Positions 9,009-23,057 of a DNA stretch of 64,000 nucleotides are shown here, piece by piece. A program made the position numbers and the translations under genes. The notes under the pieces are model-generated. The model did no database searches. It saw nothing but the letters and a program-made list of their open reading frames with translations, and was not told where the DNA came from. Every line of letters starts with the position of its first letter. Position 1 is the stretch's first letter. The DNA comes from Gemmatimonadota bacterium. Its GTDB lineage: Bacteria; Gemmatimonadota; Gemmatimonadetes; Palauibacterales; KS3-K002. The stretch is from the NCBI GenBank assembly GCA_020344015.1, contig CP070812.1, positions 4,261,489-4,325,488 of the forward strand, in the 5' to 3' direction.

Positions 9009-11429
9009 ATGTCGCGTTTCCGTAGGCTCATAGTCGAGGCGCATCGTCGCTCGATCTGGCAGGTGCTGCTCATCTACTTGGGTGCATCGTACGCGGTCCT
9101 CGAAGCGGTCGATCTGTTCACCGAGCGCTTCGGCCTGCCGGCCTGGTTCTTCCCGACCGCCGCGGTGCTCCTGTTGATCGGGCTGCCGATCGTGCTGGCG
9201 ACGGCCCTGGTCGAGAACGCCGAGGGCGCGGCTCGGGAAGCCGGCGGCGAGGGCGGGGGCGAAGACCAACTTGAGTACGCGCCGAGGCGCTCCGGTCGCC
9301 AGGCCAAACGTCGACTGACCTGGCGCAACGCCATCGCCGGCGCGGTGATCGCCTTTGCGGTCTGGGGGGTGGTGGCAGCCGGCTGGATGCTTCTCGGAGG
9401 TGGAAGGCCCGGCGGTGACGGAGCCGGTGAAGCTGGGTTGGACCCTGGTGTCGTCGCCGTCCTCCCCTTCCGCGTTGCCGGTGCCGATCCGGCGATCGTC
9501 TACCTGAGGGAGGGGATGGTCGACCTTCTGGCCGCCAAGCTCACCGGCGAAGGGGGTCCCCGGGCGGTCGATCCGAGAGCGGCCATCAGCGCCTGGAACC
9601 GCGCCGGCGACTCGAGAGACGCCGACCTCACGGAGGCGGCTGCACTCGACCTCGCGCGCTCCCTGGGCGCCGGTCGCGTTCTGCTCGGCGGCCTGGTTGG
9701 AACGGCCGGGCACGTGGTCCTCAACGCGTCGCTCCTCACGGTCGATGCGGAGGATCGCGGCGTCCAGGCGAGCGTCGAAGGCACGACCGACAGCCTGACG
9801 GCGCTGGTAGACGGGCTCACCGCGCAACTTCTGGCACGTGGGGCCGGTGAGTCGCGACAGCGGCTCGCCGCCCTTACCAGCACATCGCTACCTGCGCTAC
9901 GCGCCTATCTCGAGGGCCAGGCGACTTACCGCAGCGGTCGCTTCGTCGATGCGGAACGACTCTTCCGCGAGGCCGTCGACCTCGACCCTACTTTCTCACT
10001 CGCCGCGCTGGGGCTTGTGTCGGCGCGCTACTGGACGGAAAACGGTTTCAGCCGCGAAGCGATCAGCATCGCATGGGCGCATCGGGATCGCCTGAGCGAG
10101 CGTGACCGAGCGCTCCTCGTCGCACTGGCCGGACCCAATTTCCCGCAAGGGTCCCCGTACGGGGAAGTTTTCGCCGCCCTGCAGCGAGCCGTGGATTCCG
10201 CGCCCGACAGACCCGAAGCCTGGTACTGGCTGGGTGAATCGTACTACCACAACGCGCGGCAGCTCGGCTACGCCGACGCACACCGCCACGCGGAGGACGC
10301 TTTTCGCCGGGCCGTCGACCTCGACTCGACATTCTCGGCCCCCGTCGGGCATCTGCTGGACCACGCGCTGATGAGGGGCGACAGCGCGAGAGCGGAGGAA
10401 GTGTTGGCGTACTACCTCACCGTCAATCCGACCGGCGAGTTTCGGGATTACGAGCTCTGGCAAACCGCGCTCACTTTCGGAGACAGCGTCGCCCTCGACT
10501 CGCTGCGACGGAAGTTCCTCGAGATGAACGTCCTGCCCCTGCGCGCCGTCGTGAGGACCAGCATGCTCAAGGGGTACGACCCGGATGACGCCGAGCTAGC
10601 GGCCGCGATCCTGCGCGAGCGGCCGGCGGCGCGGGGCGAACGTGTCACGACACTATGGCTGTTGCACGATTTCGAGTTGAACCGCGGACGGCCCTCCGCC
10701 GCGTTGGCGGTGACGGAGGAAATTGGACGCATCCAGCCCGATGGTCGGCTGCGCCTTCGGCTCCGAGTCTTCGACGCTCTGTATGGAGAAGGCGACGAAG
10801 CCGCCGCCACCCATGCGGTTGATTCGCTTATGCGCGAGGCCTCGGCACCGCTTTCGCCCGACGTGAACCAGCGGGCGTCACAGCTAGCCGACCTATGTGC
10901 GGTCGAGCATTGGCGGCTTTGGAACGGTGACTTTTCGTCGGCGCCCACATCGATTGATAGGCTGCGCAGCTCGAGCTACCCGGCCGACTCGATCTGGACG
11001 GCGAGCGGCGCGAATACCTGTGCGTCCATCCTCGAGGCGGTCCACGCCTCGGCAACGGGCCAACCTGACAGTGAGATCCTGGTGGCCCAGCTCGACTCAC
11101 TCCTCCGACCGATTCCATACGGTGCCATCGTCCCCGAACGCCTCGACCGAACGGGCACGCTGGCCGTCGCCCGGCTCCTGGAATCACAGGGCGATATCGA
11201 GGCTGCCTATCGCGCGCTCCAGCGGCGCGAGTTCTTTCAGACACGCTACCTCGCGAATTACCTGCGCGAGGAAGCCCGGCTGGCCGCGCTCTTGGGTGAG
11301 CGCGAGGCCGCCGTGCGGGCTTACCGCCACTACCTGACCTTGCGGTCCGACCCGGAACCGGCGCTGGCCGTGGAGGTCGAGCGGGTCCGCGCCGAATTGG
11401 GGAGGCTCACCGCCGAGTCGGGACCCTAG
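9009..11429 (+). CDS. membrane-anchored TolB-N-like/TPR repeat protein
   Basis: N-terminal amphipathic motif RRSIWQVLLIYLGASYAVLEAVD is followed by a TM helix. Next comes VVAVLPFRVAGADPAIVYLREGMVDLLAAKL, a TolB-N-like periplasmic module common in kinase/cyclase-associated proteins. About 500 aa of TPR-like helical repeats follow. Confidence 0.7.
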   Translation: MSRFRRLIVEAHRRSIWQVLLIYLGASYAVLEAVDLFTERFGLPAWFFPTAAVLLLIGLPIVLATALVENAEGAAREAGGEGGGEDQLEYAPRRSGRQAKRRLTWRNAIAGAVIAFAVWGVVAAGWMLLGGGRPGGDGAGEAGLDPGVVAVLPFRVAGADPAIVYLREGMVDLLAAKLTGEGGPRAVDPRAAISAWNRAGDSRDADLTEAAALDLARSLGAGRVLLGGLVGTAGHVVLNASLLTVDAEDRGVQASVEGTTDSLTALVDGLTAQLLARGAGESRQRLAALTSTSLPALRAYLEGQATYRSGRFVDAERLFREAVDLDPTFSLAALGLVSARYWTENGFSREAISIAWAHRDRLSERDRALLVALAGPNFPQGSPYGEVFAALQRAVDSAPDRPEAWYWLGESYYHNARQLGYADAHRHAEDAFRRAVDLDSTFSAPVGHLLDHALMRGDSARAEEVLAYYLTVNPTGEFRDYELWQTALTFGDSVALDSLRRKFLEMNVLPLRAVVRTSMLKGYDPDDAELAAAILRERPAARGERVTTLWLLHDFELNRGRPSAALAVTEEIGRIQPDGRLRLRLRVFDALYGEGDEAAATHAVDSLMREASAPLSPDVNQRASQLADLCAVEHWRLWNGDFSSAPTSIDRLRSSSYPADSIWTASGANTCASILEAVHASATGQPDSEILVAQLDSLLRPIPYGAIVPERLDRTGTLAVARLLESQGDIEAAYRALQRREFFQTRYLANYLREEARLAALLGEREAAVRAYRHYLTLRSDPEPALAVEVERVRAELGRLTAESGP

Positions 11430-11446: not shown

Positions 11447-11791
11447 ATGAAACTGAGTGAATACCAAACCAGAGCCCATCGGACGAGCCTGGAGACCCGC
11501 TACGGCGCGGACGAAGTGATGGGCCGCTTGCTCTACCCGACGCTCAAGCTGGCCGGCGAAGCCGGCGAGTTCGGCGAGAAAGTCGGCAAGCTGCTGCGCG
11601 ACAAAGGCGGGGTGATCGGCCCCGAAGACAGAGATGCGCTGGCCGACGAGCTGGGCGACGTGCTCTGGTACGTGGCCGAGGTCGCCACCGTGCTCGATGT
11701 TGACCTGGACCATGTGGCGACGGACAACCTGGAGAAGCTGAGAAGCCGGGCTGATCGGGGCGTGATTCAGGGCAGCGGCGACGACCGGTAG
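11447..11791 (+). CDS. MazG-like nucleotide pyrophosphohydrolase
   Basis: EVGELAE-type helix GEAGEFGEKVGK...ELGDVLWYVAEVATVLDVDLDHV. Length is 114 aa. Confidence 0.85.
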   Translation: MKLSEYQTRAHRTSLETRYGADEVMGRLLYPTLKLAGEAGEFGEKVGKLLRDKGGVIGPEDRDALADELGDVLWYVAEVATVLDVDLDHVATDNLEKLRSRADRGVIQGSGDDR

Positions 11792-11964: not shown

Positions 11965-13557
11965 CTACGGGCCGTGCCGACCTGTATTACGCAGATCGTG
12001 TCTGTACTTCGGCCATGGGCTGGCGGCGAGGCCTGGAGTGGTCGCGAAAGTCCTCAGAGCGTAAAGATTACCATCATCCGAGCCTATGTAGACGACCGGG
12101 ACCGTTGGATCGAGGGTTGGCGGCGAGGCCACCCACCAACCGGTCAGGTAGGTCCACAGCACCTGCCCGGTGGAACTCACGGCGTAGACGTTGTAATCCA
12201 GTCCGCCTAGGTAAATGGTGCCGTCCGCGCCGACAGCCGGCGAGGCGTTCCAAACCCCCTCCCCAATAGTGACTGTCCACTTCACGTTCCCGTTCGGATC
12301 TGCAGCGTACAGGCATCCCTGGCTCGGGTCGCTACCACCGGGGCACGCGGCATACGAGGGAACGTAAATCGTGCCGTCGGGCCCAAGCGCAGGTGCCGCG
12401 TTCAGCTGAGTCTCGTCCGGATCATCAATCTCCACCCGCCACTGCTCGACGCCGGTTGTGGCATCAAGTGCGTGGAGGTAGGCTTCCCGGCTCGGAACAT
12501 ACAGCGTGCCAACGCCGTCGTGGATTGGCGCTGCTTCCGTAAAATGCAGCGGCCCGACCCGCCACCGCTCGTTCGACAGGTCGGGCGTAAAGGCGTGAAT
12601 GAAGCCGTCCGGGTAATTCGGCCCGGCTGATGTCATGTACACAGTTCCATCGGGGCCGATGGTGGGTGCGGAATAAGCGTTATGGCCAGAGCCAACACTC
12701 GCGCTGTACACAACCGAACCGTCATTCGGGTCAACGGCGTGGACATCACCGTCACCCGTACCGAGGTAGAGCAAACCGTTACCCAACGCGACCCCGTACA
12801 GAATGGGGCCTCTATTCTTCCCCTTGCGTCTCCCGAAGTATAAGTCCCAGATGAGGTCGCCAGCCGCCGCGTCCAGCGCGTAGAGGGTCCGAAGACCTAT
12901 CACGAACACTGCTGACCCGTCCGCCGAGACAGCCGCAGGTTTGTGGACCCGCCCGTCGGTTCTAAACTTCCATTTCAGACAGCCTTCAGTCGTCACAGCG
13001 TAGAAGAACTCGTCCGCAGAGCCGAAGTAGATGGTGCCGTTCGCAAAGGCCGGAGCGCTGAATACTCCGTCTTGAGTCTTGAAGGTCCAGGCCACCCGGC
13101 TGCTCGGGTCCGAAGATACCCCGCACTGGTTCCTCGCCCTGACCTGGAACATCTCGGTCCCCATACCCTTCTTGCCACGAGGCGTACTCACCATCACGTC
13201 GTACCATTCCACCGGGGCGTCTGACTCTATGGTGATGTTCGCAATCAGTTTCCGCGGGTTGGCGTAGCGGGTCGAGTTGGTTTTGATCTTCGGATGTGGC
13301 ACCCATTCGTGACCGAATTCCACCACCGAACCATCAACGAACCCGGAGCCGTACACCTCCACGTCTAGAGTCGTCCCCTGTTCCGCTTCGCTGGGGTCTG
13401 TCGCAGTAACGGTGACGTCCTTGTCCCCCTTGCCAAGGTTGACGCCGGTGATCTCGGGGCGGGTGCCGGCCGGATCGCCGCAGCCCATGGTCCAGGCGAA
13501 AGCAGCTGCCGCGAGTACTACGACCGTGACGAGGTAGGACTGCCGTGACCGTCTCAT
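11965..13557 (-). CDS. PQQ-like beta-propeller lipoprotein with N-terminal Ig-like domain
   Basis: Signal plus lipobox AFAWTMGCGD. There are repeated YA(V/L)D...G..(L/V)W... blades: YALDAAAGDLIWD, HAVDPNDGSVVYS, HALDATTGVEQWR, YAVSSTGQVLWTY. Confidence 0.8.
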   Translation of the reverse strand: MRRSRQSYLVTVVVLAAAAFAWTMGCGDPAGTRPEITGVNLGKGDKDVTVTATDPSEAEQGTTLDVEVYGSGFVDGSVVEFGHEWVPHPKIKTNSTRYANPRKLIANITIESDAPVEWYDVMVSTPRGKKGMGTEMFQVRARNQCGVSSDPSSRVAWTFKTQDGVFSAPAFANGTIYFGSADEFFYAVTTEGCLKWKFRTDGRVHKPAAVSADGSAVFVIGLRTLYALDAAAGDLIWDLYFGRRKGKNRGPILYGVALGNGLLYLGTGDGDVHAVDPNDGSVVYSASVGSGHNAYSAPTIGPDGTVYMTSAGPNYPDGFIHAFTPDLSNERWRVGPLHFTEAAPIHDGVGTLYVPSREAYLHALDATTGVEQWRVEIDDPDETQLNAAPALGPDGTIYVPSYAACPGGSDPSQGCLYAADPNGNVKWTVTIGEGVWNASPAVGADGTIYLGGLDYNVYAVSSTGQVLWTYLTGWWVASPPTLDPTVPVVYIGSDDGNLYALRTFATTPGLAASPWPKYRHDLRNTGRHGP

Positions 13558-13622: not shown

Positions 13623-16526
13623 TTATTGCGGGGCAATTCCCAGTTCTCTTCCGCCGCTCAGGGTGTAGGCCGCCCAATAGTAGGGCGCCTCGTACGTTGA
13701 ATCGGCCATCATGTCTCGCTGCGCCCGCGCCAGCGCCTCGACCGGTGGGGCGTCCTGCAAATGGCGATAAAAGCGCGCGGCGAAGACCCCGGCGCCCGCA
13801 TCGTCCACCGGCCAGAGTGTCGCGATTACATTGCCTGCACCGGCGTATAGAAAAGCCTGCGCCAGCGTCGCAAAATCCTCGCCGCGCCTGTACTCGGTTG
13901 ACCAAGCGACTCCGACTCCGGTCTCGCAGCCAGATAGAAACACGAGCGGGCTGCGAACCTTCAGTCCGAGCAACTCGTGGACCTCCAACCTACCATCGCT
14001 GGGGCGCCCGTCGGTGGCGTCGCCCCTGAGCTCGATTCTCGAGAACATCGGGTTGCGAGAATTCAACACACCGTGCGTGGCTACATGCACTATCGCGCCG
14101 TCCGAGAGGGCCCGGCGTAGCTCTGCTTCCGTCGCGCGATCACCGATGAAGGTCCCGGCTTCGGGCAACGCTTCAGCAAACGCCGCCACCTCCTCCCGTG
14201 TGGCTGGCAAACGTCTAGGAAATGGCGCGAAGCTTCGCCCGGGAGCGCTGCGCACCTGGGGACCGTGGGTATCGCCAGCGCGGAGGATGGGAAGCGCTGC
14301 CGCCGTCGGCAGATGCAGAAGCGAAAAACCCTCCGCCAGGTAACGGCCGCTCGCTTGATCTCGCAGAGCAGCAAATGGCAGGTACGACAACTCCGCGTGA
14401 GGCACAATGATCAGACGATGCACTCCCTCGAGCGCGCCGGCTGTCACCGCCGGTCGAATAAGGTCATTGTAGAGCCGTGCCAAGGCTGCGTTTGCGTCAC
14501 TCCAGCGCCGGCGCCTTGCCAGCAGGTCACGCGCAACGCGAATACGGCTCAACAGCCCGATGGATCCGGAGCTGGCTTCCAGGCTGAGAATACCTTGCTG
14601 GGTGACCACGAACAGAAGTACCCGATCCGGCGTCACCAGGTACTCCAACAGCGCCTCTCCCGGCTCCAGAACGCTGACGATTGAACCGGCGCTCGCCGGG
14701 GCACTGCCGAGCAACGTCGCCCCTCCGATGTCGCGAACCAGGGCCCGGCTGCGCAGCGATTCGTATTCGGAGCGAGCCGCCGCGAGAGCGCTTGTCAGTT
14801 CCTCCTCCGACGCCACGAAGTCCGCACCACGTTCACCCGACGGGACCTCCTCGACTTCACCCAGTCGCGTGAGGAGCTCATCGATTCTGCGCAAGACCTC
14901 CTCCGCCTCGGCAAGCTCGGCGGCTGACCCTGTCGAGCCAAGCTCATGCCGCGCCGCCGTCAGGTGCTCTAGCAGCGCACGCCCCCGTCCGGCATCCGCC
15001 ACCTGAAAGGCCTCCTCGATCTCACCGCGACGAAGGTGCACCAACACGAGATCCGAGTAGACGCTCGCTTTGTCGGAGAGGTAAGACGTTCGGAGATACC
15101 CGGTCGAGAACCTCGCGCGGGCTCGCTCAACAGCCGCCACTGCTCTCTGGCCCTCAACCACCGCAGAATCGAGCACACCCAGACGCGAGTACGCACGCGC
15201 CGCCAGAGCGTGCGCCTGCCACTCGGTGCCGTAGCCGCCGCGGGTGAGATCGTCTTGAACGGTCTCCAATACTCGAAGCACTTCCGCGCCGTCACGGTCC
15301 TGATCGGCGAGACGCGCTCGCGTGAGTGCGATCTCCACCCGAGCACTACGGACCCCTAGTCCTCGCGAGAGGCTGTCTGCTACACTGAGATGCCTTTGTG
15401 CTTCCTCGTGAGCGCCCCTCTCATGCGCCATCTCGGCGGACACCGCCAGGTCGAACAACTCCTCCAAAGGCGCGCCCGTCTCTTGGTGAATGCGCAGCGC
15501 TTCATCTACATAGCGTCCCGCCAGGCCAAGATCGCCTAGCAGTGCGTGGATCTCGGCTGCGCTCCTGAGGTTGACCCCGATCTCGATCTGTAGCCCCAGT
15601 TCTTCGTTGATCTCGTTCGCATCGCGGTACAGTTCAAGGGCGCGCCGATAGTCGCCCGCCTTCAGGTAGAACTCGGCCATGATCTCCAGGTTGCTCGCCT
15701 CTTCTTGACGCAGGCCTTGCCGGCGAGTTAGGGCTAGTGCGCTGTCCAGCGCCGCGAACGCGAGACTCGGCTCACCCAACGCGTCATAAGCGGTCGCCAG
15801 TTGGCCCAGTGCATTCTGCTCACCTGTTGCATAGTCGATCGATTCGTAAAGGCGACGCGCTTCCCGCAGCGACTCGACCGCCGCGACCGGATTGCCGACC
15901 TTGATATCGAGCATCGCCAGGTTGTTGAGAGCATTACCTTCGATGCGCGCATCGCCGAGGGCCCGGCCGGCCTCCCTCATACCGTTGAAGCCGCGGCGCG
16001 CCTCCGTGAACCGACCCAAGTCGGTAAGCACCAATGCTAGGTTCCCCTCGGCAGCAACAAGCCGTCTTTGGTCTCCCACCCCCCGAGCCGCCGCAGCTGC
16101 CAGGCGGAAGAGATCGGTGGCATCGGACAGCCTTGATTCGTTCCAGGCGAGCAGGCCCAATGCGTTGTACGACCTCGAGAGTTTGTCTTCGAGCCCGAGG
16201 TGCAACTTAAGCCGCAGAGCTTCTTCGCCCAGTCGGCGCGCCGCTTTGTAGTCGCCGGTTCTCCAAGCCGCCAGCCCAAGCCAGGTCAACACCTCCGACT
16301 CTGCCAGCGAGTCGGACTGCGATCGCGCCATCTCCAGCGCGAGCCGGAACGACGCCTGCGCCTCATCGAACTCGCCGGCCCAGTACGCTTTTTCAGCAGA
16401 TGACATTAGCGAATCGAGGGGCGACGCCCAGACCTCAACGGTCCGCGCCTCCAAATAGACTCCGGTCTCTCTTTGGGACGCCTCATCGTCGCCGAAACAG
16501 GCGGACTGAACAAGCGCCGCGCACAA
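13623..16526 (-). CDS. TPR-repeat CHAT-domain protein (caspase-like His/Cys protease fold)
   Basis: The N-terminal ~600 aa carry many TPR-like repeats. The C-terminal CHAT has catalytic dyad motifs IVHVATHGV and LVFLSGCETG. Start is 8 nt after the anti-sigma stop. No clear signal peptide. Confidence 0.85.
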   Translation of the reverse strand: MCAALVQSACFGDDEASQRETGVYLEARTVEVWASPLDSLMSSAEKAYWAGEFDEAQASFRLALEMARSQSDSLAESEVLTWLGLAAWRTGDYKAARRLGEEALRLKLHLGLEDKLSRSYNALGLLAWNESRLSDATDLFRLAAAAARGVGDQRRLVAAEGNLALVLTDLGRFTEARRGFNGMREAGRALGDARIEGNALNNLAMLDIKVGNPVAAVESLREARRLYESIDYATGEQNALGQLATAYDALGEPSLAFAALDSALALTRRQGLRQEEASNLEIMAEFYLKAGDYRRALELYRDANEINEELGLQIEIGVNLRSAAEIHALLGDLGLAGRYVDEALRIHQETGAPLEELFDLAVSAEMAHERGAHEEAQRHLSVADSLSRGLGVRSARVEIALTRARLADQDRDGAEVLRVLETVQDDLTRGGYGTEWQAHALAARAYSRLGVLDSAVVEGQRAVAAVERARARFSTGYLRTSYLSDKASVYSDLVLVHLRRGEIEEAFQVADAGRGRALLEHLTAARHELGSTGSAAELAEAEEVLRRIDELLTRLGEVEEVPSGERGADFVASEEELTSALAAARSEYESLRSRALVRDIGGATLLGSAPASAGSIVSVLEPGEALLEYLVTPDRVLLFVVTQQGILSLEASSGSIGLLSRIRVARDLLARRRRWSDANAALARLYNDLIRPAVTAGALEGVHRLIIVPHAELSYLPFAALRDQASGRYLAEGFSLLHLPTAAALPILRAGDTHGPQVRSAPGRSFAPFPRRLPATREEVAAFAEALPEAGTFIGDRATEAELRRALSDGAIVHVATHGVLNSRNPMFSRIELRGDATDGRPSDGRLEVHELLGLKVRSPLVFLSGCETGVGVAWSTEYRRGEDFATLAQAFLYAGAGNVIATLWPVDDAGAGVFAARFYRHLQDAPPVEALARAQRDMMADSTYEAPYYWAAYTLSGGRELGIAPQ

Positions 16527-16534
16527 GGCAGCGA

Positions 16535-17155
16535 CTAGTGCCCTGCGCCGTCGTTCTGACGCAACGTCGAGAATTGCTTGACTCCCGTAGTGGTGGATTG
16601 ACCGTCAGCTAACAGCGCGTCGACGTACCAGAAGTAGATACGATCGGGTAGCAGAGTTTCCGGCGTTGGAACAGCCACAGTCGTATCCGACGTCGTAGTG
16701 CTCCATACCACCTGACCATCTGCTTCGGTCAGGGTCAACCGGTAAGAGGCATCGGGCGCTGCTGAGCGCCACACAAACACGACCTCATCGCCCAGCAGAG
16801 CGGTGCCGTCGACGGGAGCAACGACCTGGAATCTCGGAGTTGTGGCCAGCTGCGCTTCAGTGTCGGTACCTCTCAGGACCGGCCTCGAATCCGGTCCGGA
16901 TATCTTAGGTCCGAGGAAAAGGATGGCAGCGATAGCCGCCGCAGCCGTCACTGGACCTGCCACGTACCACGGACTGAAACGCTTCAGCTCCTTTAGATCC
17001 CGAGACACCTCGATGACTTCGCGTCGGCACTCATCGCATGTGGCCAGATGAGCTTCGACTCGGGCTGTCTCCTCGTTGCTGATAGCGCCCTCCAGATAAC
17101 CGGCGACGATATCGCTGCTCAGGTGTTCGGCCAAAGACCCATCCTCTGTCATCAC
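16535..17155 (-). CDS. zinc-finger anti-sigma factor with TM helix and ~120-aa extracytoplasmic domain
   Basis: HLATCDECRREV is the ZAS H-x3-C-x2-C motif. TM segment is WYVAGPVTAAAAIAAILFLG. The gene is immediately downstream of the ECF sigma gene. Confidence 0.7.
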   Translation of the reverse strand: MMTEDGSLAEHLSSDIVAGYLEGAISNEETARVEAHLATCDECRREVIEVSRDLKELKRFSPWYVAGPVTAAAAIAAILFLGPKISGPDSRPVLRGTDTEAQLATTPRFQVVAPVDGTALLGDEVVFVWRSAAPDASYRLTLTEADGQVVWSTTTSDTTVAVPTPETLLPDRIYFWYVDALLADGQSTTTGVKQFSTLRQNDGAGH

Positions 17156-17258
17156 AGTCTCAGCGCTACCATGAACAACGTGCCTCCATTCTTATTGGAC
17201 GGACAACCACACCTCGTCTTGCAGCGGTCCGTTTCCTACGTCCGGCACACAGGCAGAA

Positions 17259-17921
17259 TCAAGGCGATGCATCCTCGACGCCTCGCTGCATTAGGTCCTG
17301 CCGGAGCGACCTGCAGATCAAGTCAAGACGACGATAGACACTAAAGACGGACGGAAATCGCATTAATCTGGCGATCTCACGAACCGAGATTTCGTCGTGG
17401 AATCTCAACTTCAAGAGAAGCTGATCCCGATGATCGAGGCGCCCGATCGCCGACTGTAAAGCGTCTCGGAGCTCAGCTTCACGTAACTCGACCTCCGGAT
17501 TGCCGCGGGAGGGATCGGGGACAGCAGACAGGTCAATCTCCACGGCCACCAGATCAGCCAAGCGTCTTCGGGTCGCCCGCGCTTCAAGGGCGGCACGACC
17601 TGACTGTGCCCTATTGCGGCCGTATACGCGCCGCCCGTAGTCCAGGCAGAGGCGCCGGGCTACAACTGCCAGCCAAGTAGAAAACTTGCCGCGTCCCGCG
17701 GTGGCATAGGCGCGCAATCGCCTAAAATCGTCCCGGCGAAGCTCCTCCAGCATGTACGCGTAGCGGTCCATGGCGCTGTCGTAGTCCCGGCTGTAGGCGT
17801 GCGCCGCATGCAGGAGCAGGCGGTTGTATTTGGCGGTGAACGCCGCCCAGTTCGTTTCAACAGAGGGAGGGTCGGACGAATCGAGCAGGCGGGATAACTC
17901 GGGAGGAAGCGATGTTGCCAT
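17259..17921 (-). CDS. ECF-type sigma-70 family RNA polymerase sigma factor
   Basis: Region 2 is KFSTWLAVVARRLCLDY. Region 4 HTH is LLLKLRFHDEISVREIARLM. Start taken at MATSLPPELS (aa 43 of the track ORF, which begins with TTG). Confidence 0.8.
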   Translation of the reverse strand: MATSLPPELSRLLDSSDPPSVETNWAAFTAKYNRLLLHAAHAYSRDYDSAMDRYAYMLEELRRDDFRRLRAYATAGRGKFSTWLAVVARRLCLDYGRRVYGRNRAQSGRAALEARATRRRLADLVAVEIDLSAVPDPSRGNPEVELREAELRDALQSAIGRLDHRDQLLLKLRFHDEISVREIARLMRFPSVFSVYRRLDLICRSLRQDLMQRGVEDASP

Positions 17922-18181
17922 CCGTGCCTCAGCGTCGTGACCGACGTGCTTGAAGTTCGGACGCAGCCCAGCAGTATCGCACGAGTCCAACCTAGAGTTT
18001 AACACTACTGCTCCCCACAGGACTTGGCCAGACTGCGTGGCTAGCAACTAGTGGCGCTGACGATACCGGCTGCTCCTTGGGCACGATGGTTGCGCCTGCT
18101 TCGATCGTTGCTCACTCTATGTCGTTGGGACATCAAGACTACATAGTGGTTCGGTCAAGATTCCAGGAGTAGAGCTCGGTC

Positions 18182-19165
18182 ATGCACACACCGGCCTCGT
18201 ATTCTCGACGGGAGTTCCTCGGAAGGTCCCTCTCCTGTGTCTGCCATCTCGCTCTGATGGCCCTGCCCTTCAATCCGTCTGTACGTCGGCTCTGGTCCTC
18301 CCGGGCACGCGGCCAGGTCGTCGCAGAGGAACCGTTCGCCCGACTGGAGGAGATCGGCGAAGGCCTGTTCGCCCTGATATCGACCCCGCTGGGCGGCGAC
18401 TACACCACGGTCTCCAACGGCGGGATCATCGCCGGTAGCGACGGCGTCCTGGCGGTCGAGGGCTTCATGAGCCCCGATGGCGCGCTCTGGCTAGCAGAAA
18501 AGACCAGGGAGCTCACGGGGCGCTGGCCCACCCACGCCGTCATCACACACTACCATTCGGACCACAGCAGGGGCGTTGACGGCTACCTCACCGAGGCCGA
18601 CGGACCTGACGTTCGGGCCACTGCTGTGACGAGCGAGCTCGTGCTCACGCGACGCAGAGAGCCGGCCGATGACAAAACCCAGAGGGTGTGGGCCGACGTC
18701 ACTCTACTGGACGAGAACGAGGCGAGTCTCATCGACCTCGGTGGACGGACGGTTCGAGTCGTGCCACGCAAAGGGCACACGCCCAGCGACGTCACGATCG
18801 AGCTGGCCGAAGAGAGCATCGTGTGGTGCGGCGACCTCGTTTGGAATGGGATGTTCCCAAACTACGTCGATGCCATACCCTCTCAATTGTCCGAGGCGGT
18901 CCGGGCTATCGGGCGCGGCGCCTGGTCGGCGTACGTCCCCGGCCACGGCCCGCTGGCCGATGCGGCGGAGCTGGAGAAGTACGTGGCGGTGCTGGACGAC
19001 ATCGAGGCCGCGGCGCGCCGTGCCTTCGAGCGGGGGGCCAGCGCGGAGGACGCGGGCGCCGCTTACGAGATCCCGGCCGAGCTCGGCGAGTGGACCCTCT
19101 TCAATCCGCAGTACTTCGAGCGCGCCATCGGGGCCTGGATGCGTGAACTGCGCGCGTCCGGATGA
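18182..19165 (+). CDS. MBL-fold metallo-hydrolase, Tat-exported
   Basis: Twin-arginine motif SRREFLGRS. HxHxDH motif ITHYHSDHSRG, with later His/Asp ligands. Confidence 0.85.
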   Translation: MHTPASYSRREFLGRSLSCVCHLALMALPFNPSVRRLWSSRARGQVVAEEPFARLEEIGEGLFALISTPLGGDYTTVSNGGIIAGSDGVLAVEGFMSPDGALWLAEKTRELTGRWPTHAVITHYHSDHSRGVDGYLTEADGPDVRATAVTSELVLTRRREPADDKTQRVWADVTLLDENEASLIDLGGRTVRVVPRKGHTPSDVTIELAEESIVWCGDLVWNGMFPNYVDAIPSQLSEAVRAIGRGAWSAYVPGHGPLADAAELEKYVAVLDDIEAAARRAFERGASAEDAGAAYEIPAELGEWTLFNPQYFERAIGAWMRELRASG

Positions 19166-19272
19166 GTACACACAGCGGCCGCAACGATGCGTCGCGCCAA
19201 GCTGTTACGTTAGTGGGAGTCTCGCACCCACAACCATCTTCATCTGCTTCCACCCGGTACAAGGAGAAATCC

Positions 19273-21261
19273 GTGCGGAACGAGAGAATCTGCATCTCGA
19301 AGCTCGCCGCGGGGCTGATCTTCCTCACGGCGTCGGCGCTGGCCCTCCCCGGGAGCGGCCAGGCGCAAGCGACGTCGTATCTGGATTTCGATCAGCTCAC
19401 GCGCCAGCTCCGATCTCTGGTGAATAGCTCCGACATGGCCCGCATGAACTCGGTGGGGACATCGATCGAGGGCCGGGAGATCTGGGTCGTGGAGATCGGG
19501 AATCCATCAGGAAAGCCGTTGGAGGAACGCCCCGCCGTCCTGGTGATCGGAAACCTCGAGGGCGACCACGTGGTCGGCAGCGCCCTGGCGCTGGAGACCA
19601 TCCGCTACCTCCTGGACGGAGCCGAGGACAACGCCGAAATCCAGACGATCCTGGAGGAACAGACAGTCTACGTCTTCCCGCGGGTGAACCCCGACGGTGC
19701 GGAAGCGATGTTCGCGTCGGTCAAGTGGGAGAGGTCGAGGAACGCCCGCCCCTACGACGATGACAACGACGGCCGTATCGACGAGGACGGGCCCGAAGAC
19801 CTGAACGGGGACGGACTCATCACCGTCATGCGCGTCCCCAATCCTTCCGGCGACTACATGATCGACACGGTCGACGCTCGCCTTATGAAGAAGGCGGATC
19901 CCACAAAGGGCGAGCAGGGAGAGTACACGCTCTACTGGGAGGGCACCGACTCGGACGGCGACGGGTTCTTGAACGAGGACGGGCCCGGCGGCGTCGATCT
20001 CAACCGCAACTTCCAGCACGCCTATCCCTACTGGCAGCGGGACGCGGGTCCTCACATGGTCAGCGAGCCGGAGAGCCGCGCGCTGATGGATTTCGTGATC
20101 GCCCACCGCAACATCGGCGCGATCCTGGCATTCGGTCGCACAGACAATCTGGTTACGCCTCCCGACTCGCGAGGCAACGTCGCCGACGCGAGCATCCTGG
20201 ACCTGCCATCGTTCGCGGACGCTTCAAACGCGGAAATCTCCGAGGTCGGTGTATTCGGAGCTCAGCAACCTTCCGGCTTCGGTTTCTTCTTCTTCCGCGG
20301 CGGCAGAGGATCCGGCTTCCGCGGCGCACAACCGGGACGCGACAACGATCCGAACGCCGGCCGCAGGCCGGCCACCACGTTCAATCAGGCGGACCTCGAG
20401 TACTTCAATGCCGCCTCCGAAGCATACAAGTCCATCACAGGGATCGAGTCGGTCGGAATCCACCGGACGCCCGAAGGCGCCTTCTTCCAGTACGGCTACT
20501 TCCAGTTCGGCGTCCCCTCCTTCAGCACCCCGGGGTGGGGGCTTCCCTCGGCAGAGCCAGAAGAGCCTGGCGAGGAAACTCCGGGCGCCGCTGAGGAGCG
20601 CCCCGAAGGCGCCGCCCGTGAGAGGCCTCCTGGGGGCGCCAGACCGGCGGGCGCAGGCGCGAGAGCCGGCGGCGGGAGAGCCATGCCTCAGGGAGGACGT
20701 CCCGGCGGCGGTGGCGTTGCGGCCGGGGCGGATGCTCGCGTTCTCTCCGCCCTCGACGCCGCCGGGATCGACGCCTTCGTGGACTGGACCGCCTACACTC
20801 ACCCGACACTGGGTGAGGTCGAGATCGGCGGGTTCCGACCCTACGCCGCGACTAATCCCCCCGCCGAGGATCTTGCGGGGCTGGGGCGTGACCACGGCGA
20901 GTTCGTCGCCCGCCTGGCCCGTATGCTCCCGCGGGTGACGATCGTCGAGACCGAGGTGACGGCGCACGGCGGTGGCATCTACACCGTGGCGGTCGAGATC
21001 GAGAACTCGGGATACTTCCCGACATCGCTCCAACACGGGGTCGTGTCCCGTTCGGTCGGGCCGACGACCGTGCAGATCCACGTTCCACCGGAAGATGTGA
21101 TCACTGGCGACGCGAAGACGAGCTCGATTCGACAACTGAACGGTTCGCACAACCGAGAGCGTTTCGAGTGGGTGATTCGGGGACGCGATGGTGCGAGGGT
21201 AGAGATCACTGCGCTCGCCCAAAAGGGCGGGACCGACAGTGCCACCGTGACGCTGAGGTGA
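19273..21261 (+). CDS. M14-family carboxypeptidase-like protein, secreted, with divergent metal site and low-complexity insert
   Basis: GTG start follows AAGGAGA. Signal peptide is KLAAGLIFLTASALALPGSGQA. It aligns along its length with the downstream M14 gene (VYVFPRVNPDGAE vs FYIVPTVNPDGRD). EGDH replaces the HGNE zinc motif. There is a Gly/Pro/Arg-rich ~120-aa insert. Confidence 0.8.
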   Translation: MRNERICISKLAAGLIFLTASALALPGSGQAQATSYLDFDQLTRQLRSLVNSSDMARMNSVGTSIEGREIWVVEIGNPSGKPLEERPAVLVIGNLEGDHVVGSALALETIRYLLDGAEDNAEIQTILEEQTVYVFPRVNPDGAEAMFASVKWERSRNARPYDDDNDGRIDEDGPEDLNGDGLITVMRVPNPSGDYMIDTVDARLMKKADPTKGEQGEYTLYWEGTDSDGDGFLNEDGPGGVDLNRNFQHAYPYWQRDAGPHMVSEPESRALMDFVIAHRNIGAILAFGRTDNLVTPPDSRGNVADASILDLPSFADASNAEISEVGVFGAQQPSGFGFFFFRGGRGSGFRGAQPGRDNDPNAGRRPATTFNQADLEYFNAASEAYKSITGIESVGIHRTPEGAFFQYGYFQFGVPSFSTPGWGLPSAEPEEPGEETPGAAEERPEGAARERPPGGARPAGAGARAGGGRAMPQGGRPGGGGVAAGADARVLSALDAAGIDAFVDWTAYTHPTLGEVEIGGFRPYAATNPPAEDLAGLGRDHGEFVARLARMLPRVTIVETEVTAHGGGIYTVAVEIENSGYFPTSLQHGVVSRSVGPTTVQIHVPPEDVITGDAKTSSIRQLNGSHNRERFEWVIRGRDGARVEITALAQKGGTDSATVTLR

Positions 21262-23057
21262 TGGAAATGAACTACGTAAAAGAGAACAGAATGGTGACGA
21301 GGCTAGGCGCGGCCTTCCTGGCCATCGCCATCATCCTGGCCGGCGCGCCCGACCTGAGCGCCCAGCAGCGCGGTGGTTCCGACCCGGAGCACAGGTTGCC
21401 ACTCACCTGGGATCGCTGGCTCGATCACGCGGGCATGGCTGAGCGGATGAGGCAGATGGCCGACACGTGGCCCGAGTTCCTGACCCTCACGTCACTGGGC
21501 AAGAGCTACGGCGGCCGCGACCTGTGGATGATGACCATCAACAACCCCAGCACCGGCCCCGAGATGAACAAGGCGGCCATGTACATCGAGGCCAACGTGC
21601 ACGGGAACGAGATCCAGGGCGGTGAGATCTGCCTCTATACGATCTGGTACCTGATGGAGAACTACGGCCGCATAGAAGAGATCACGCGCCTGGTCGACGA
21701 GCGGGTCTTCTACATCGTTCCGACCGTCAATCCCGACGGCCGCGATTACTTCATGCACGGCACGGGCTCCGGCTCGCGCACCGGGCACGTACCCGTCGAC
21801 AGCGACGGAGACGGCCTCTTCGATGAGGATGGACCCGACGATCTGAACGGGAGCGGCATGATCGAGCAGATCCGCAAGTACGTCCCCGGTGAAGGTACCC
21901 ACCGCATCAGTCACGACGATCCGAGGATCATGGAGACCGTCCCCTCGGGCGAGACCGGTGACTGGATCCTGCTGGGGTCCGAGGGAATCGACAACGACGG
22001 CGACGGGCGCGTCAACGAGGACCCGGTCGGCGGCTACGACCCGAACCGCAACTACGGCGCGGGCTGGCAGCCCAACTACATCCAGGGCGGCTCGATGAAT
22101 TACCCGTTCGAGCTGCCGGAATCGCGTGCCACCAACGACTTCTGGATGACGCATCCCAACATCGCCGGCGCCCAGTCGTACCACAATTCGGGCGGGATGA
22201 TCCTACGCGGCCCGGGGACCGCCTGGCACGGCACCTACCCCAGAGAGGACATCCGCGTCTACGACGAGCTGGGCGAAAACGGCGAGCGGATCCTTCCTTA
22301 CTACAACTACCTTATCATCTGGCAGGGGCTCTATACGGTGCACGGGGGCTCCATCGACTGGACGAATGATGGGCTCGGCGCCGTCTCCTTCTCCAACGAG
22401 CTCTGGAGCGGCAGCCTGTACTTCGGCAGCGATCTGCTACGAGAACAACAGGAGGACCCGGACTCGCCGATCTCGGGCCAGAAGTCGCGGTTCTTCTTCG
22501 ATGACTTCGTCGAGTTCGGCGACAACTACGTCGAGTGGACGCCATTCGATCATCCACAGTTCGGAGCGGTAGAGCTGGGCGGGTGGAAGAAGTACTTCGG
22601 TCGGATAAACCCACGCTTCACGAGCATGGAGCAGTTCCACCGCAACATGGCCTTCACACTGTATCACGCCGATCAGATGCCGCTCATGTCTATCGGTGAA
22701 ACCACGGTAGAGAACGTGGGCGGGAACGTGTACAGGGTGCGGGTGGACATCAGGAACGAACGGCTGATCCCGACCATCACCGTGCGGGCGCGGCAGAACA
22801 ACGTCGTGCGCCCCGATCTCCTCACTGTTGACGGTAACGTCGAGGTCATCGCCGCGGGCTGGGTGCCCAACAAGCACCGGCCCGGCCCCACCGACCGAAT
22901 CGACCAGGACGAGCTCGACCGCATCATCATCCGCAGCGGCCACCCCGGCCGCACGACCCGGACCATCGAGTACCTGGTCCGCGGCTCCGGCTCGATGACG
23001 GTCACCTACTCTGCAGTCAAGGGCGGCACGGCTTCCACAACCGTGCGGCTCCGCTGA
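21261..23057 (+). CDS. M14-family zinc carboxypeptidase, secreted
   Basis: Signal peptide is MVTRLGAAFLAIAIILAGAPDLSAQ. The HGNE zinc motif lies in IEANVHGNEIQGGE. VNPDGRDY and SYHNSGG supply the third His. ATG overlaps the upstream stop by 1 nt. Confidence 0.85.
   Translation: MEMNYVKENRMVTRLGAAFLAIAIILAGAPDLSAQQRGGSDPEHRLPLTWDRWLDHAGMAERMRQMADTWPEFLTLTSLGKSYGGRDLWMMTINNPSTGPEMNKAAMYIEANVHGNEIQGGEICLYTIWYLMENYGRIEEITRLVDERVFYIVPTVNPDGRDYFMHGTGSGSRTGHVPVDSDGDGLFDEDGPDDLNGSGMIEQIRKYVPGEGTHRISHDDPRIMETVPSGETGDWILLGSEGIDNDGDGRVNEDPVGGYDPNRNYGAGWQPNYIQGGSMNYPFELPESRATNDFWMTHPNIAGAQSYHNSGGMILRGPGTAWHGTYPREDIRVYDELGENGERILPYYNYLIIWQGLYTVHGGSIDWTNDGLGAVSFSNELWSGSLYFGSDLLREQQEDPDSPISGQKSRFFFDDFVEFGDNYVEWTPFDHPQFGAVELGGWKKYFGRINPRFTSMEQFHRNMAFTLYHADQMPLMSIGETTVENVGGNVYRVRVDIRNERLIPTITVRARQNNVVRPDLLTVDGNVEVIAAGWVPNKHRPGPTDRIDQDELDRIIIRSGHPGRTTRTIEYLVRGSGSMTVTYSAVKGGTASTTVRLR

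Follow-up and report, generated by a model that had tools for sequence, protein, structure and literature searches.

We describe a four-gene cassette in a 64,000-nt stretch of contig CP070812.1 from a Gemmatimonadota bacterium (the window, whose positions are used as coordinates below). The cassette encodes an ECF-type sigma factor, an anti-sigma factor with a single transmembrane segment, a protein with TPR repeats and a caspase-like CHAT domain, and a beta-propeller protein. In the list of open reading frames (ORFs) of the window, the genes follow one another head to tail, all four on the minus strand (Table 1). The cassette is a conserved unit, and we are nearly certain that it is a real one. 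We also argue that the TPR-CHAT protein is exported, and we propose that it might cut the periplasmic part of its own anti-sigma factor. This bears on how a CHAT protease that is outside the cytoplasm could control an ECF sigma factor, a question for which DdvA from Myxococcus is the single studied case. A prediction made from the window's sequence alone (the original prediction) had placed the sigma, anti-sigma, and TPR-CHAT genes where we find them, and had assigned the caspase-like protease to an ECF circuit; this assignment stands, as both the catalytic dyad and the gene order are conserved. But what had been called a three-gene module has a fourth member, the gene for a beta-propeller lipoprotein at 11965-13557.

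A scan of one genome per species gave 302 relatives of the TPR-CHAT protein, and our counts of gene order are for the best 80 loci. All of these loci are from Gemmatimonadota assemblies, except for two that are labelled just "uncultured bacterium" and one from a bin labelled Myxococcota. The best database match is a CHAT protein from a Gemmatimonadota metagenome-assembled genome. Among the best 80 loci, two or three copies come from the same assembly in at least seven cases. The cassette is multiplied in Gemmatimonadota, and the window holds one copy; no paralogues of the cassette genes are found elsewhere within the 64 kb.

The gene order is kept in essentially every related locus, which supports the original prediction that the neighbors belong together. 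An anti-sigma homologue lies immediately upstream of the CHAT gene, on the same strand, in all 74 loci with upstream sequence. A sigma homologue lies upstream of the anti-sigma gene in about 61 of 63 loci, and the anti-sigma factor would bind this sigma factor. A PQQ-type propeller gene is immediately downstream of the CHAT gene in about 55 of 67 loci, and it is elsewhere in the locus in 6 more. When we started instead from three divergent anti-sigma homologues (31-41% identity), the sigma gene was again upstream of each, and the next gene downstream again encoded a TPR-CHAT protein and overlapped by 4 nt. Clustering the long ORFs of the 80 loci gave the four cassette families as the only shared ones, along with antisense "shadow" ORFs. 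Because only these four families recur in varied surroundings, the cassette is self-contained, and the MBL-fold and MazG-like genes that flank it in the window are outside of it. The shadow ORFs lie opposite the CHAT gene (13623-16526) in 63 loci; they reflect high G+C content and codon bias and are not evidence for another gene.

The junction between the anti-sigma and CHAT genes has a distinctive arrangement. In 64 of the 74 loci, the TGA stop codon of the anti-sigma gene is overlapped by an NTG codon that is in frame with CHAT (GTGA in 25 loci, ATGA in 18, CTGA in 12, and TTGA in 9), while a third of the loci would be expected to have this frame relation by chance. One further locus has TAGTG, which brings the start/stop overlaps to 65 of 74. 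The overlapping NTG codon sits 15-31 codons ahead of the cysteine of a lipobox (see below). At the other junctions, the gap is mostly -4 to +100 nt (CHAT to propeller) or mostly tens of nucleotides (sigma to anti-sigma). The 12 CTGA loci (L001, L002, L003, L047, L054, and others) lack a canonical start before the signal peptide. In the window the junction is CTAG, and an upstream ATT is seemingly used instead. It appears that this coupled junction often has a non-canonical start.

The original prediction held that the TPR-CHAT protein has no evident signal peptide and is cytoplasmic. This follows from the ORF rule, which starts the protein at TTG (16526), and the NCBI annotation (P0001; 927 amino acids from an ATG) excludes the export signal as well. 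A public annotation that omits the signal would mislead any inference from localization. Ahead of the TTG, the CHAT frame remains open, with the reading ...ILDVASERRRRALVAALCAALVQSAC/FGDD, which has an n-region, an h-region, and a lipobox cysteine. The upstream in-frame reading can also be given as ...QAILDVASERRRRALVAALCAALVQSAC/FGDD, where the n-region is positively charged and is followed by a hydrophobic core and a cysteine at the lipobox position. The signal peptide can be written as RRRR-ALVAALCAALV-QSA-C26, and no other 11-mer in the entire protein is as hydrophobic as its h-region. The -3 residue of the lipobox, a glutamine, is atypical. Full-length homologues have ~990 amino acids and N-termini that are lipoprotein signals (for example, ...LSAALGC/S). 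The lipobox cysteine is an invariant column in the alignment (31/31), and it is kept in 73 of 75 homologues. Many homologues (P0003, P0008, P0010, P0013, and others) also have a P-R-D-P-P motif 3-7 residues past this cysteine, where the window's protein has CFGDDEAS instead.

No ATG, GTG, or TTG is in frame before the RRRR stretch. Upstream of it, the only start codons of translation table 11 are an ATT (16574-16572) and one ATC further up. The ATT is preceded by GGGAG (16586-16582) with a 7-nt spacer. Translation probably starts at this ATT, as judged from the sequence around it, and would yield a lipoprotein of 983 amino acids. The gap of 8 nt that had been reported between the anti-sigma stop and the CHAT start is correct for the TTG, but with the likely ATT start there is no gap, as the genes overlap by 40 nt. 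An independently assembled contig from Logan (L081) has identical bases at the ATT and GGGAG, so this region is not an assembly error. An in-frame ATT is likewise present in the nearest relatives, L001 and L002, again with a run of G 7 nt upstream. On the strength of these sequence features, we think that the TPR-CHAT protease is very probably periplasmic. Both it and the propeller protein fit the class of bacterial lipoproteins, with lipidation predicted, and the functional parts of these two proteins and of the anti-sigma factor are all predicted to be in the periplasm.

The TPR-CHAT protein matches Pfam's CHAT model with E = 1.5e-59, from position 3 to position 288 of the 289 in the profile, and it matches TPR_12 and other models as well. 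Numbered from the ATT, it has a signal peptide (1-25), Cys26, a disordered tether (27-48), a TPR/helical region (52-621), and the CHAT domain (~640-975), with ~570 residues of TPR-like helices ahead of the CHAT domain. The His/Cys dyad is intact, as the original prediction had stated from the motifs HVATHG and LSGCETG. Both residues (His834 and Cys883) are invariant in the 31 aligned sequences, and among the loci the histidine is kept in 79/80 and the cysteine in 80/80. The protein is a member of the CHAT peptidases (PF12770; clan CD, caspase fold), and we predict that it is proteolytic.

We compared a predicted structure of the TPR-CHAT protein (pLDDT 83.8, pTM 0.77) to known structures with Foldseek. 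The best matches are human separase (E = 5e-14), Csx29 from craspase (E = 7.5e-14), and two structures of DdvA (8RW5, E = 2e-13, and 8ROT, E = 9e-13). DdvA has the highest identity among these matches (16-17%). Sequence searches of the PDB gave much less: the whole protein and its profile found TPR proteins only, and the CHAT domain by itself found Csx29 with E = 1. Linking the protein to DdvA, Csx29, and separase required the structural model.

The anti-sigma factor matches zf-HC2 with 37.6 bits (cut-off 22.2; E = 2.3e-9). Its zinc motif is H36-x3-C40-x2-C43, and the three residues are kept in 69, 68, and 68 of 75 homologues. By this HxxxCxxC motif, it belongs to the class I, or ZAS, anti-sigma factors, and it is predicted to bind zinc and a sigma factor. 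A zinc-finger domain of three helices (about residues 10-58) is followed by a single hydrophobic span (64-82), a linker (86-110), and an FN3-like beta-sandwich (111-198). The AlphaFold model has a mean pLDDT of 82, with over 95 in the two folded domains and under 50 in the linker; the three-helix bundle is at residues 14-59 of the model, with pLDDT of about 95. The beta-sandwich is similar to FN3 domains (Foldseek E of 1e-4 to 1e-5), and its motifs (W129, Y138, D157-T158, and W176-x-V-D-A) are strongly conserved across the paralogues. The family is large: with E <= 1e-10, we found 841 clusters at 50% identity, all with lengths of about 190-210 amino acids. A search against the PDB with the anti-sigma factor did not detect DdvA.

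The linker is the least conserved part of the anti-sigma factor (21% mean pairwise identity). Within it, at ..PVLR/GTD.., position 95 is arginine in 72 of 75 homologues (lysine in 1 and glutamine in 2), usually in the context [LVI]-R-[GAS]. From this conservation, and by analogy to the CHAT protease HetF, Arg95 is a candidate for the site at which the CHAT domain would cut. The original prediction had suggested a test for cleavage of the anti-sigma factor's cytoplasmic domain. Since the TPR-CHAT protein is very probably exported, this test aims at the wrong part of the anti-sigma factor, and the juxtamembrane linker on the periplasmic side is a better candidate for the substrate.

The sigma factor matches TIGR02937 (sigma70-ECF) with 53.6 bits (cut-off 42.9). 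The domains that had been foreseen for the cassette were largely confirmed, with CHAT, TPR, and zf-HC2 all recognized, but the two sigma-70 regions fall just below Pfam's gathering scores in the window's protein (22.8 versus 24 for region 2 and 16.7 versus 24.1 for region 4). These sub-threshold scores indicate that the sigma family is divergent. Among 18 members of the family, Pfam's region 2 is found in 17, region 4 in 14, and Sigma70_ECF in 6. When compared to the PDB, the family's profile has as its top match the ECF sigma factor SigW (E = 5e-7), with an alignment that spans region 2.4 to region 4; DdvS was not detected. We assign the protein, by sequence, to the ECF (group 4) sigma-70 family as a divergent member. 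During motif sampling we also noticed a conserved N-terminal L-P-P-E-L-x-x-L-L ahead of region 2 (window 17880-17921).

How might the cassette work? DdvA, which is encoded with the sigma factor DdvS, has a ZAS domain, a transmembrane helix, and a periplasmic TPR-CHAT region fused into one protein, and it has been proposed that its linker is cut by self-cleavage before RseP acts (PMC11506125). We suggest that the cassette could be a split form of a DdvA-type anti-sigma factor. The zinc-finger domain would hold the sigma factor in the cytoplasm, while on the periplasmic side the anti-sigma factor would expose its flexible linker and FN3-like domain in the same compartment as the lipid-anchored TPR-CHAT and propeller proteins. 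A signal that is sensed by the TPR and/or propeller parts would lead the CHAT domain to cut the linker in trans after Arg95 (site-1 cleavage). A site-2 intramembrane protease, and then cytoplasmic proteases, would act on the shortened anti-sigma factor, and the sigma factor would be released.

We consider it plausible, if somewhat short of an even bet, that the CHAT lipoprotein, gated by a signal, acts in trans on its own anti-sigma factor as the site-1 protease and cuts the linker after Arg95. This idea draws on the precedent of DdvA, on the translational coupling of the two genes, on an unusual locus (L003), and on the preference of related proteases for arginine. HetF of Anabaena, the founder of the CHAT family, is a membrane CHAT protease with TPRs that cuts PatU3 after Arg117, and the peptidases of MEROPS family C50, which includes separase, favor cutting after arginine (PMC9457339). 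At L003 (4629-6019 of WVYX01000088.1), the protein encoded before the TPR-CHAT protein keeps the transmembrane segment, the linker with LR/G, and the FN3 domain, while its cytoplasmic part has no HxxxCxxC and no Pfam match. The sigma factor of L003 is a canonical ECF of 174 amino acids (40 bits for region 2 and 60 bits for r4_2) and is unrelated to the window's sigma family. In this locus, a different cytoplasmic half seems to have been swapped onto a constant periplasmic half. Because the transmembrane segment, linker, and FN3 domain stay together with the TPR-CHAT protein, L003 suggests that the periplasmic parts travel as an input module.

Several considerations weigh against this mechanism. 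We read it here from sequences and predicted models, and even for DdvA, cleavage by the CHAT domain remains a hypothesis. The start codon of the window's TPR-CHAT gene, and hence the signal peptide, depends on a rare ATT. The conserved arginine could do something else, such as being recognized by another protease or contacting lipid head groups. Co-transcription would fit equally well if the regulon included the protease and the propeller protein among its products. Finally, Gibbs sampling of 61 regions upstream of sigma genes did not give a shared ECF-type motif (best 9.2 bits, compared to 8.5-9.1 for shuffled sequences).

One alternative is that the FN3-containing anti-sigma factor senses the signal by itself and is inactivated by other proteases, while the TPR-CHAT and propeller proteins are cargo of the sigma factor's operon. 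As effectors, they might act in the turnover of envelope proteins or in attack and defense at the cell surface. ECF operons frequently include their own effector genes, and it would fit that the four genes have the same orientation and short gaps and that no other conserved neighbor might be the regulon. We still think that this alternative is unlikely, both as to cargo status and as to these effector roles. Only the anti-sigma/CHAT junction has the start/stop overlap (65 of 74 loci), which suggests a fixed stoichiometry with the anti-sigma factor rather than inducible cargo. Also, L003 exchanges the sigma factor and the cytoplasmic domain but retains the FN3 domain, the CHAT protein, and the linker arginine together, and the fusion in DdvA (PMC11506125) is a precedent. 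A second alternative is that the TPR-CHAT and/or propeller proteins bind the FN3 domain and protect the anti-sigma factor from a separate site-1 protease until a signal displaces them. In DdvA, the bulky TPR-CHAT part blocks RseP (PMC11506125). CHAT catalysis would then not be the trigger or would be aimed at another target. TPR and propeller folds are typical binding modules, and the conserved FN3 motifs, which are of a surface type, would suit a conserved partner. RseB similarly protects RseA. But such a shield would leave the conserved linker arginine without a role, and the near-invariant His/Cys dyad implies that catalysis is under selection, so we view protection as quite improbable, and likewise a CHAT activity that is idle or directed elsewhere.

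In the reading of the original prediction, a cytoplasmic TPR-CHAT protein would cleave the cytoplasmic domain of the anti-sigma factor or trigger an abortive response inside the cell, which we compare to craspase. A product that starts at TTG 16526 or at the NCBI's ATG would indeed lack a functional signal peptide. Also, craspase ties a cytoplasmic TPR-CHAT protein to an ECF sigma factor: in this type III-E CRISPR system, Cas7-11 together with the TPR-CHAT protein Csx29 reportedly cleaves Csx30, which is bound to the ECF sigma factor RpoE. The intact in-frame lipobox signal, with its widely kept cysteine, makes a cytoplasmic protease very hard to believe. So do the match to the Csx29 model, with 20.5 bits against a cut-off of 300, and the lack of cas genes or of any PADLOC system. 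We give almost no credence to chance adjacency or an annotation artefact with functionally unlinked genes, as the order is kept in 74/74 loci, the loci can also be found from the anti-sigma side, and the frame relation occurs at 64/74 junctions rather than in a third of them.

The cassette is similar to DdvA/DdvS in many ways. Both have an ECF-type sigma factor, an N-terminal zinc-finger domain, one transmembrane segment, a flexible periplasmic linker, and a periplasmic (in the cassette, predicted) TPR-CHAT region with a His/Cys dyad, and the proposed order of events (a CHAT cut in the linker, then RseP) is the mechanism hypothesized for DdvA. However, the cassette's TPR-CHAT protein is a separate lipoprotein from the next gene, whereas DdvA is fused. 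The best 120 homologues do not include a fused form of about 1200 amino acids, and a stop codon separates the genes in the window and in 74/74 loci. With two separate genes, the cassette is DdvA-like by inference and not a member of the DdvA type. It also has an FN3-like domain in the anti-sigma factor, which DdvA lacks, and an extra member, the propeller lipoprotein. DdvA's CHAT domain lacks three conserved helices, while the cassette's CHAT domain fills the Pfam profile (3-288/289), although this is a comparison of profiles only. The cassette's sigma factor is not detectably close to DdvS, and the cassette has no defense island nearby. The fused DdvA type has been reported only from Myxococcota and one Comamonas (PMC11506125), and the cassette is in Gemmatimonadota.

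Craspase is similar in coupling a TPR-CHAT protein to an ECF-type sigma factor that is released, and Csx29 has the related fold noted above. However, craspase is cytoplasmic, RNA-guided, and associated with CRISPR, and the cassette's protease is predicted to be exported. We rejected the identification of the cassette's protease as Csx29 (NF041237) from its score, and no conserved neighbor is cas-like. We also considered a defense system more generally and rejected it: PADLOC found no system in the window, just a weak match to BovA and a TPR match, and there are no defense genes among the conserved neighbors.

Regulated intramembrane proteolysis of the anti-sigma factor of sigma-E, by way of RseA, DegS, RseB, and RseP, is another point of comparison. 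RseA is a single-pass anti-sigma factor with a periplasmic domain; its site-1 protease is periplasmic too, and so is an accessory protein that is encoded nearby. The logic that we propose for the cassette is the same. But the cassette's site-1 protease would be a cysteine protease with the caspase fold (clan CD), instead of a DegS-type serine protease, and its accessory protein is a beta-propeller and does not have the RseB fold. HetF shares the CHAT domain and makes a demonstrated, arginine-specific, single cut that controls a regulator, which supports the idea of the conserved arginine as a mark for CHAT. In HetF, though, the CHAT domain is in the cytoplasm and has no link to a sigma/anti-sigma pair.

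We found no description of the split Gemmatimonadota cassette in the literature that we searched; as this did not extend to the descriptions of the groups in the ECF classification, it may have been mentioned there before. Neither CHAT nor Gemmatimonadetes appears in the main text of PMC7826278. Gemmatimonadetes have an unexplained excess of ECFs that are associated with anti-sigma factors of class I (about 79% of their ECFs; PMC7406223), and our guess is that this cassette family may contribute to it.

Self-cleavage of DdvA is hard to test because the enzyme and the substrate are one chain. In the cassette, the presumed enzyme, the substrate, and the accessory protein are separate and of a size that can be purified, with hundreds of natural variants, so that the cleavage hypothesis becomes a simple mixing experiment with Arg95 as the predicted site. 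We speculate, while holding this more as a possibility than as a conclusion, that Gemmatimonadota have hundreds of diversified, receptor-like cassettes in which a lipid-anchored periplasmic CHAT protein is a dedicated trans-acting site-1 protease that cuts its own FN3-bearing anti-sigma factor after the conserved linker arginine, and the variable propeller lipoprotein sets the specificity for ligands. If this is true, these proteases would make up the first family with a caspase-like fold to initiate regulated intramembrane proteolysis, and they would provide direct evidence, with a separable enzyme and substrate, for a mechanism that has so far only been hypothesized for DdvA.

The propeller protein has its own lipoprotein signal (...AFAWTMGC/GD) and an Ig-like N-terminal domain, followed by a propeller of the PQQ_2/BamB-like type. 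We considered whether it might be a PQQ-dependent dehydrogenase and rejected this, as it scores 48.5 bits against TIGR03075 (cut-off 480) and 14.4 against TIGR03074 (cut-off 833); only generic models of the PQQ_2 repeat match. By sequence, it seems to be BamB-like, with no evident enzymatic function. In a divergent cassette (L082, 7946-9901), the fourth gene encodes a lipoprotein with an RCC1/WD40_RLD propeller and a Big_5 Ig-like domain, which is not of the PQQ type. The fourth position of the cassette may accept differing families of propellers.

Table 1. Coordinates of the cassette, of its proposed functional sites, and of flanking features in the window
Feature	Position	Strand	Remarks
Divergent ECF-type sigma factor	17259..17921	-	220 aa; ATG at 17921; TIGR02937
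Single-pass ZAS anti-sigma factor	16535..17155	-	206 aa; zf-HC2
TPR-CHAT lipoprotein	13623..16574	-	983 aa from the proposed ATT; Pfam CHAT E = 1.5e-59
TPR-CHAT protein by the ORF rule (TTG at 16526)	13623..16526	-	967 aa
Beta-propeller lipoprotein, fourth cassette gene	11965..13557	-	530 aa; PQQ_2 E = 4e-25
Proposed start region (GGGAG and ATT)	16572..16586	-	Inside the 3' end of the anti-sigma gene
Codon of Arg95, juxtamembrane linker of the anti-sigma factor, candidate CHAT cleavage site	16871..16873	-	R in 72/75
Codon of predicted catalytic His834 (HVATH-G; numbered from the ATT)	14073..14075	-	Kept in 79/80 loci
Codon of predicted catalytic Cys883 (LSG-C-ETG)	13926..13928	-	Kept in 80/80 loci
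Divergent intergenic region between the sigma and MBL genes	17922..18181	.	Presumed location of the promoter
MBL-fold gene	18182..19165	+	Divergent; upstream of the sigma gene
MazG-like gene	11447..11791	+	Convergent; downstream of the propeller gene

In the intergenic region upstream of the window's sigma gene (17922-18181), a consensus scan did not find a sigma-70-like site, and counting dyads in the upstream regions did not find a motif. In seven loci (L015, L006, L050, L036, L009, L068, and L077), a housekeeping-like element, TTGC-N17-TAxxxT, precedes the sigma gene by 60-115 nt, without statistical support over the whole set of loci.

The MBL-fold gene on the opposite strand next to the sigma gene is real, and its product has a Tat-like N-terminus (SRREFLG), as the original prediction had noted. 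Apart from the window, only the near-identical contig L081 has it next to the cassette. The top NCBIfam matches of this MBL-fold hydrolase are to models for "quinoprotein relay system zinc metallohydrolase", with scores far under the cut-offs. On the other side of the cassette, at 9009-11429 (plus strand), a protein of 806 amino acids has N-terminal hydrophobic segments and TPRs. It has a homologue in locus L024, and its match to TIGR04510 ("putative peptide modification system cyclase") is weak, with 61 bits where the cut-off is 400. Beyond the MBL-fold gene, at 19162-21261 and 21168-23057 (plus strand), are tandem paralogous zinc carboxypeptidases of the Peptidase_M14 family (E = 9e-32 and 2e-39). 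Both have signal-like N-termini, and the first has a long insert that is rich in Gly, Ala, Pro, and Arg.

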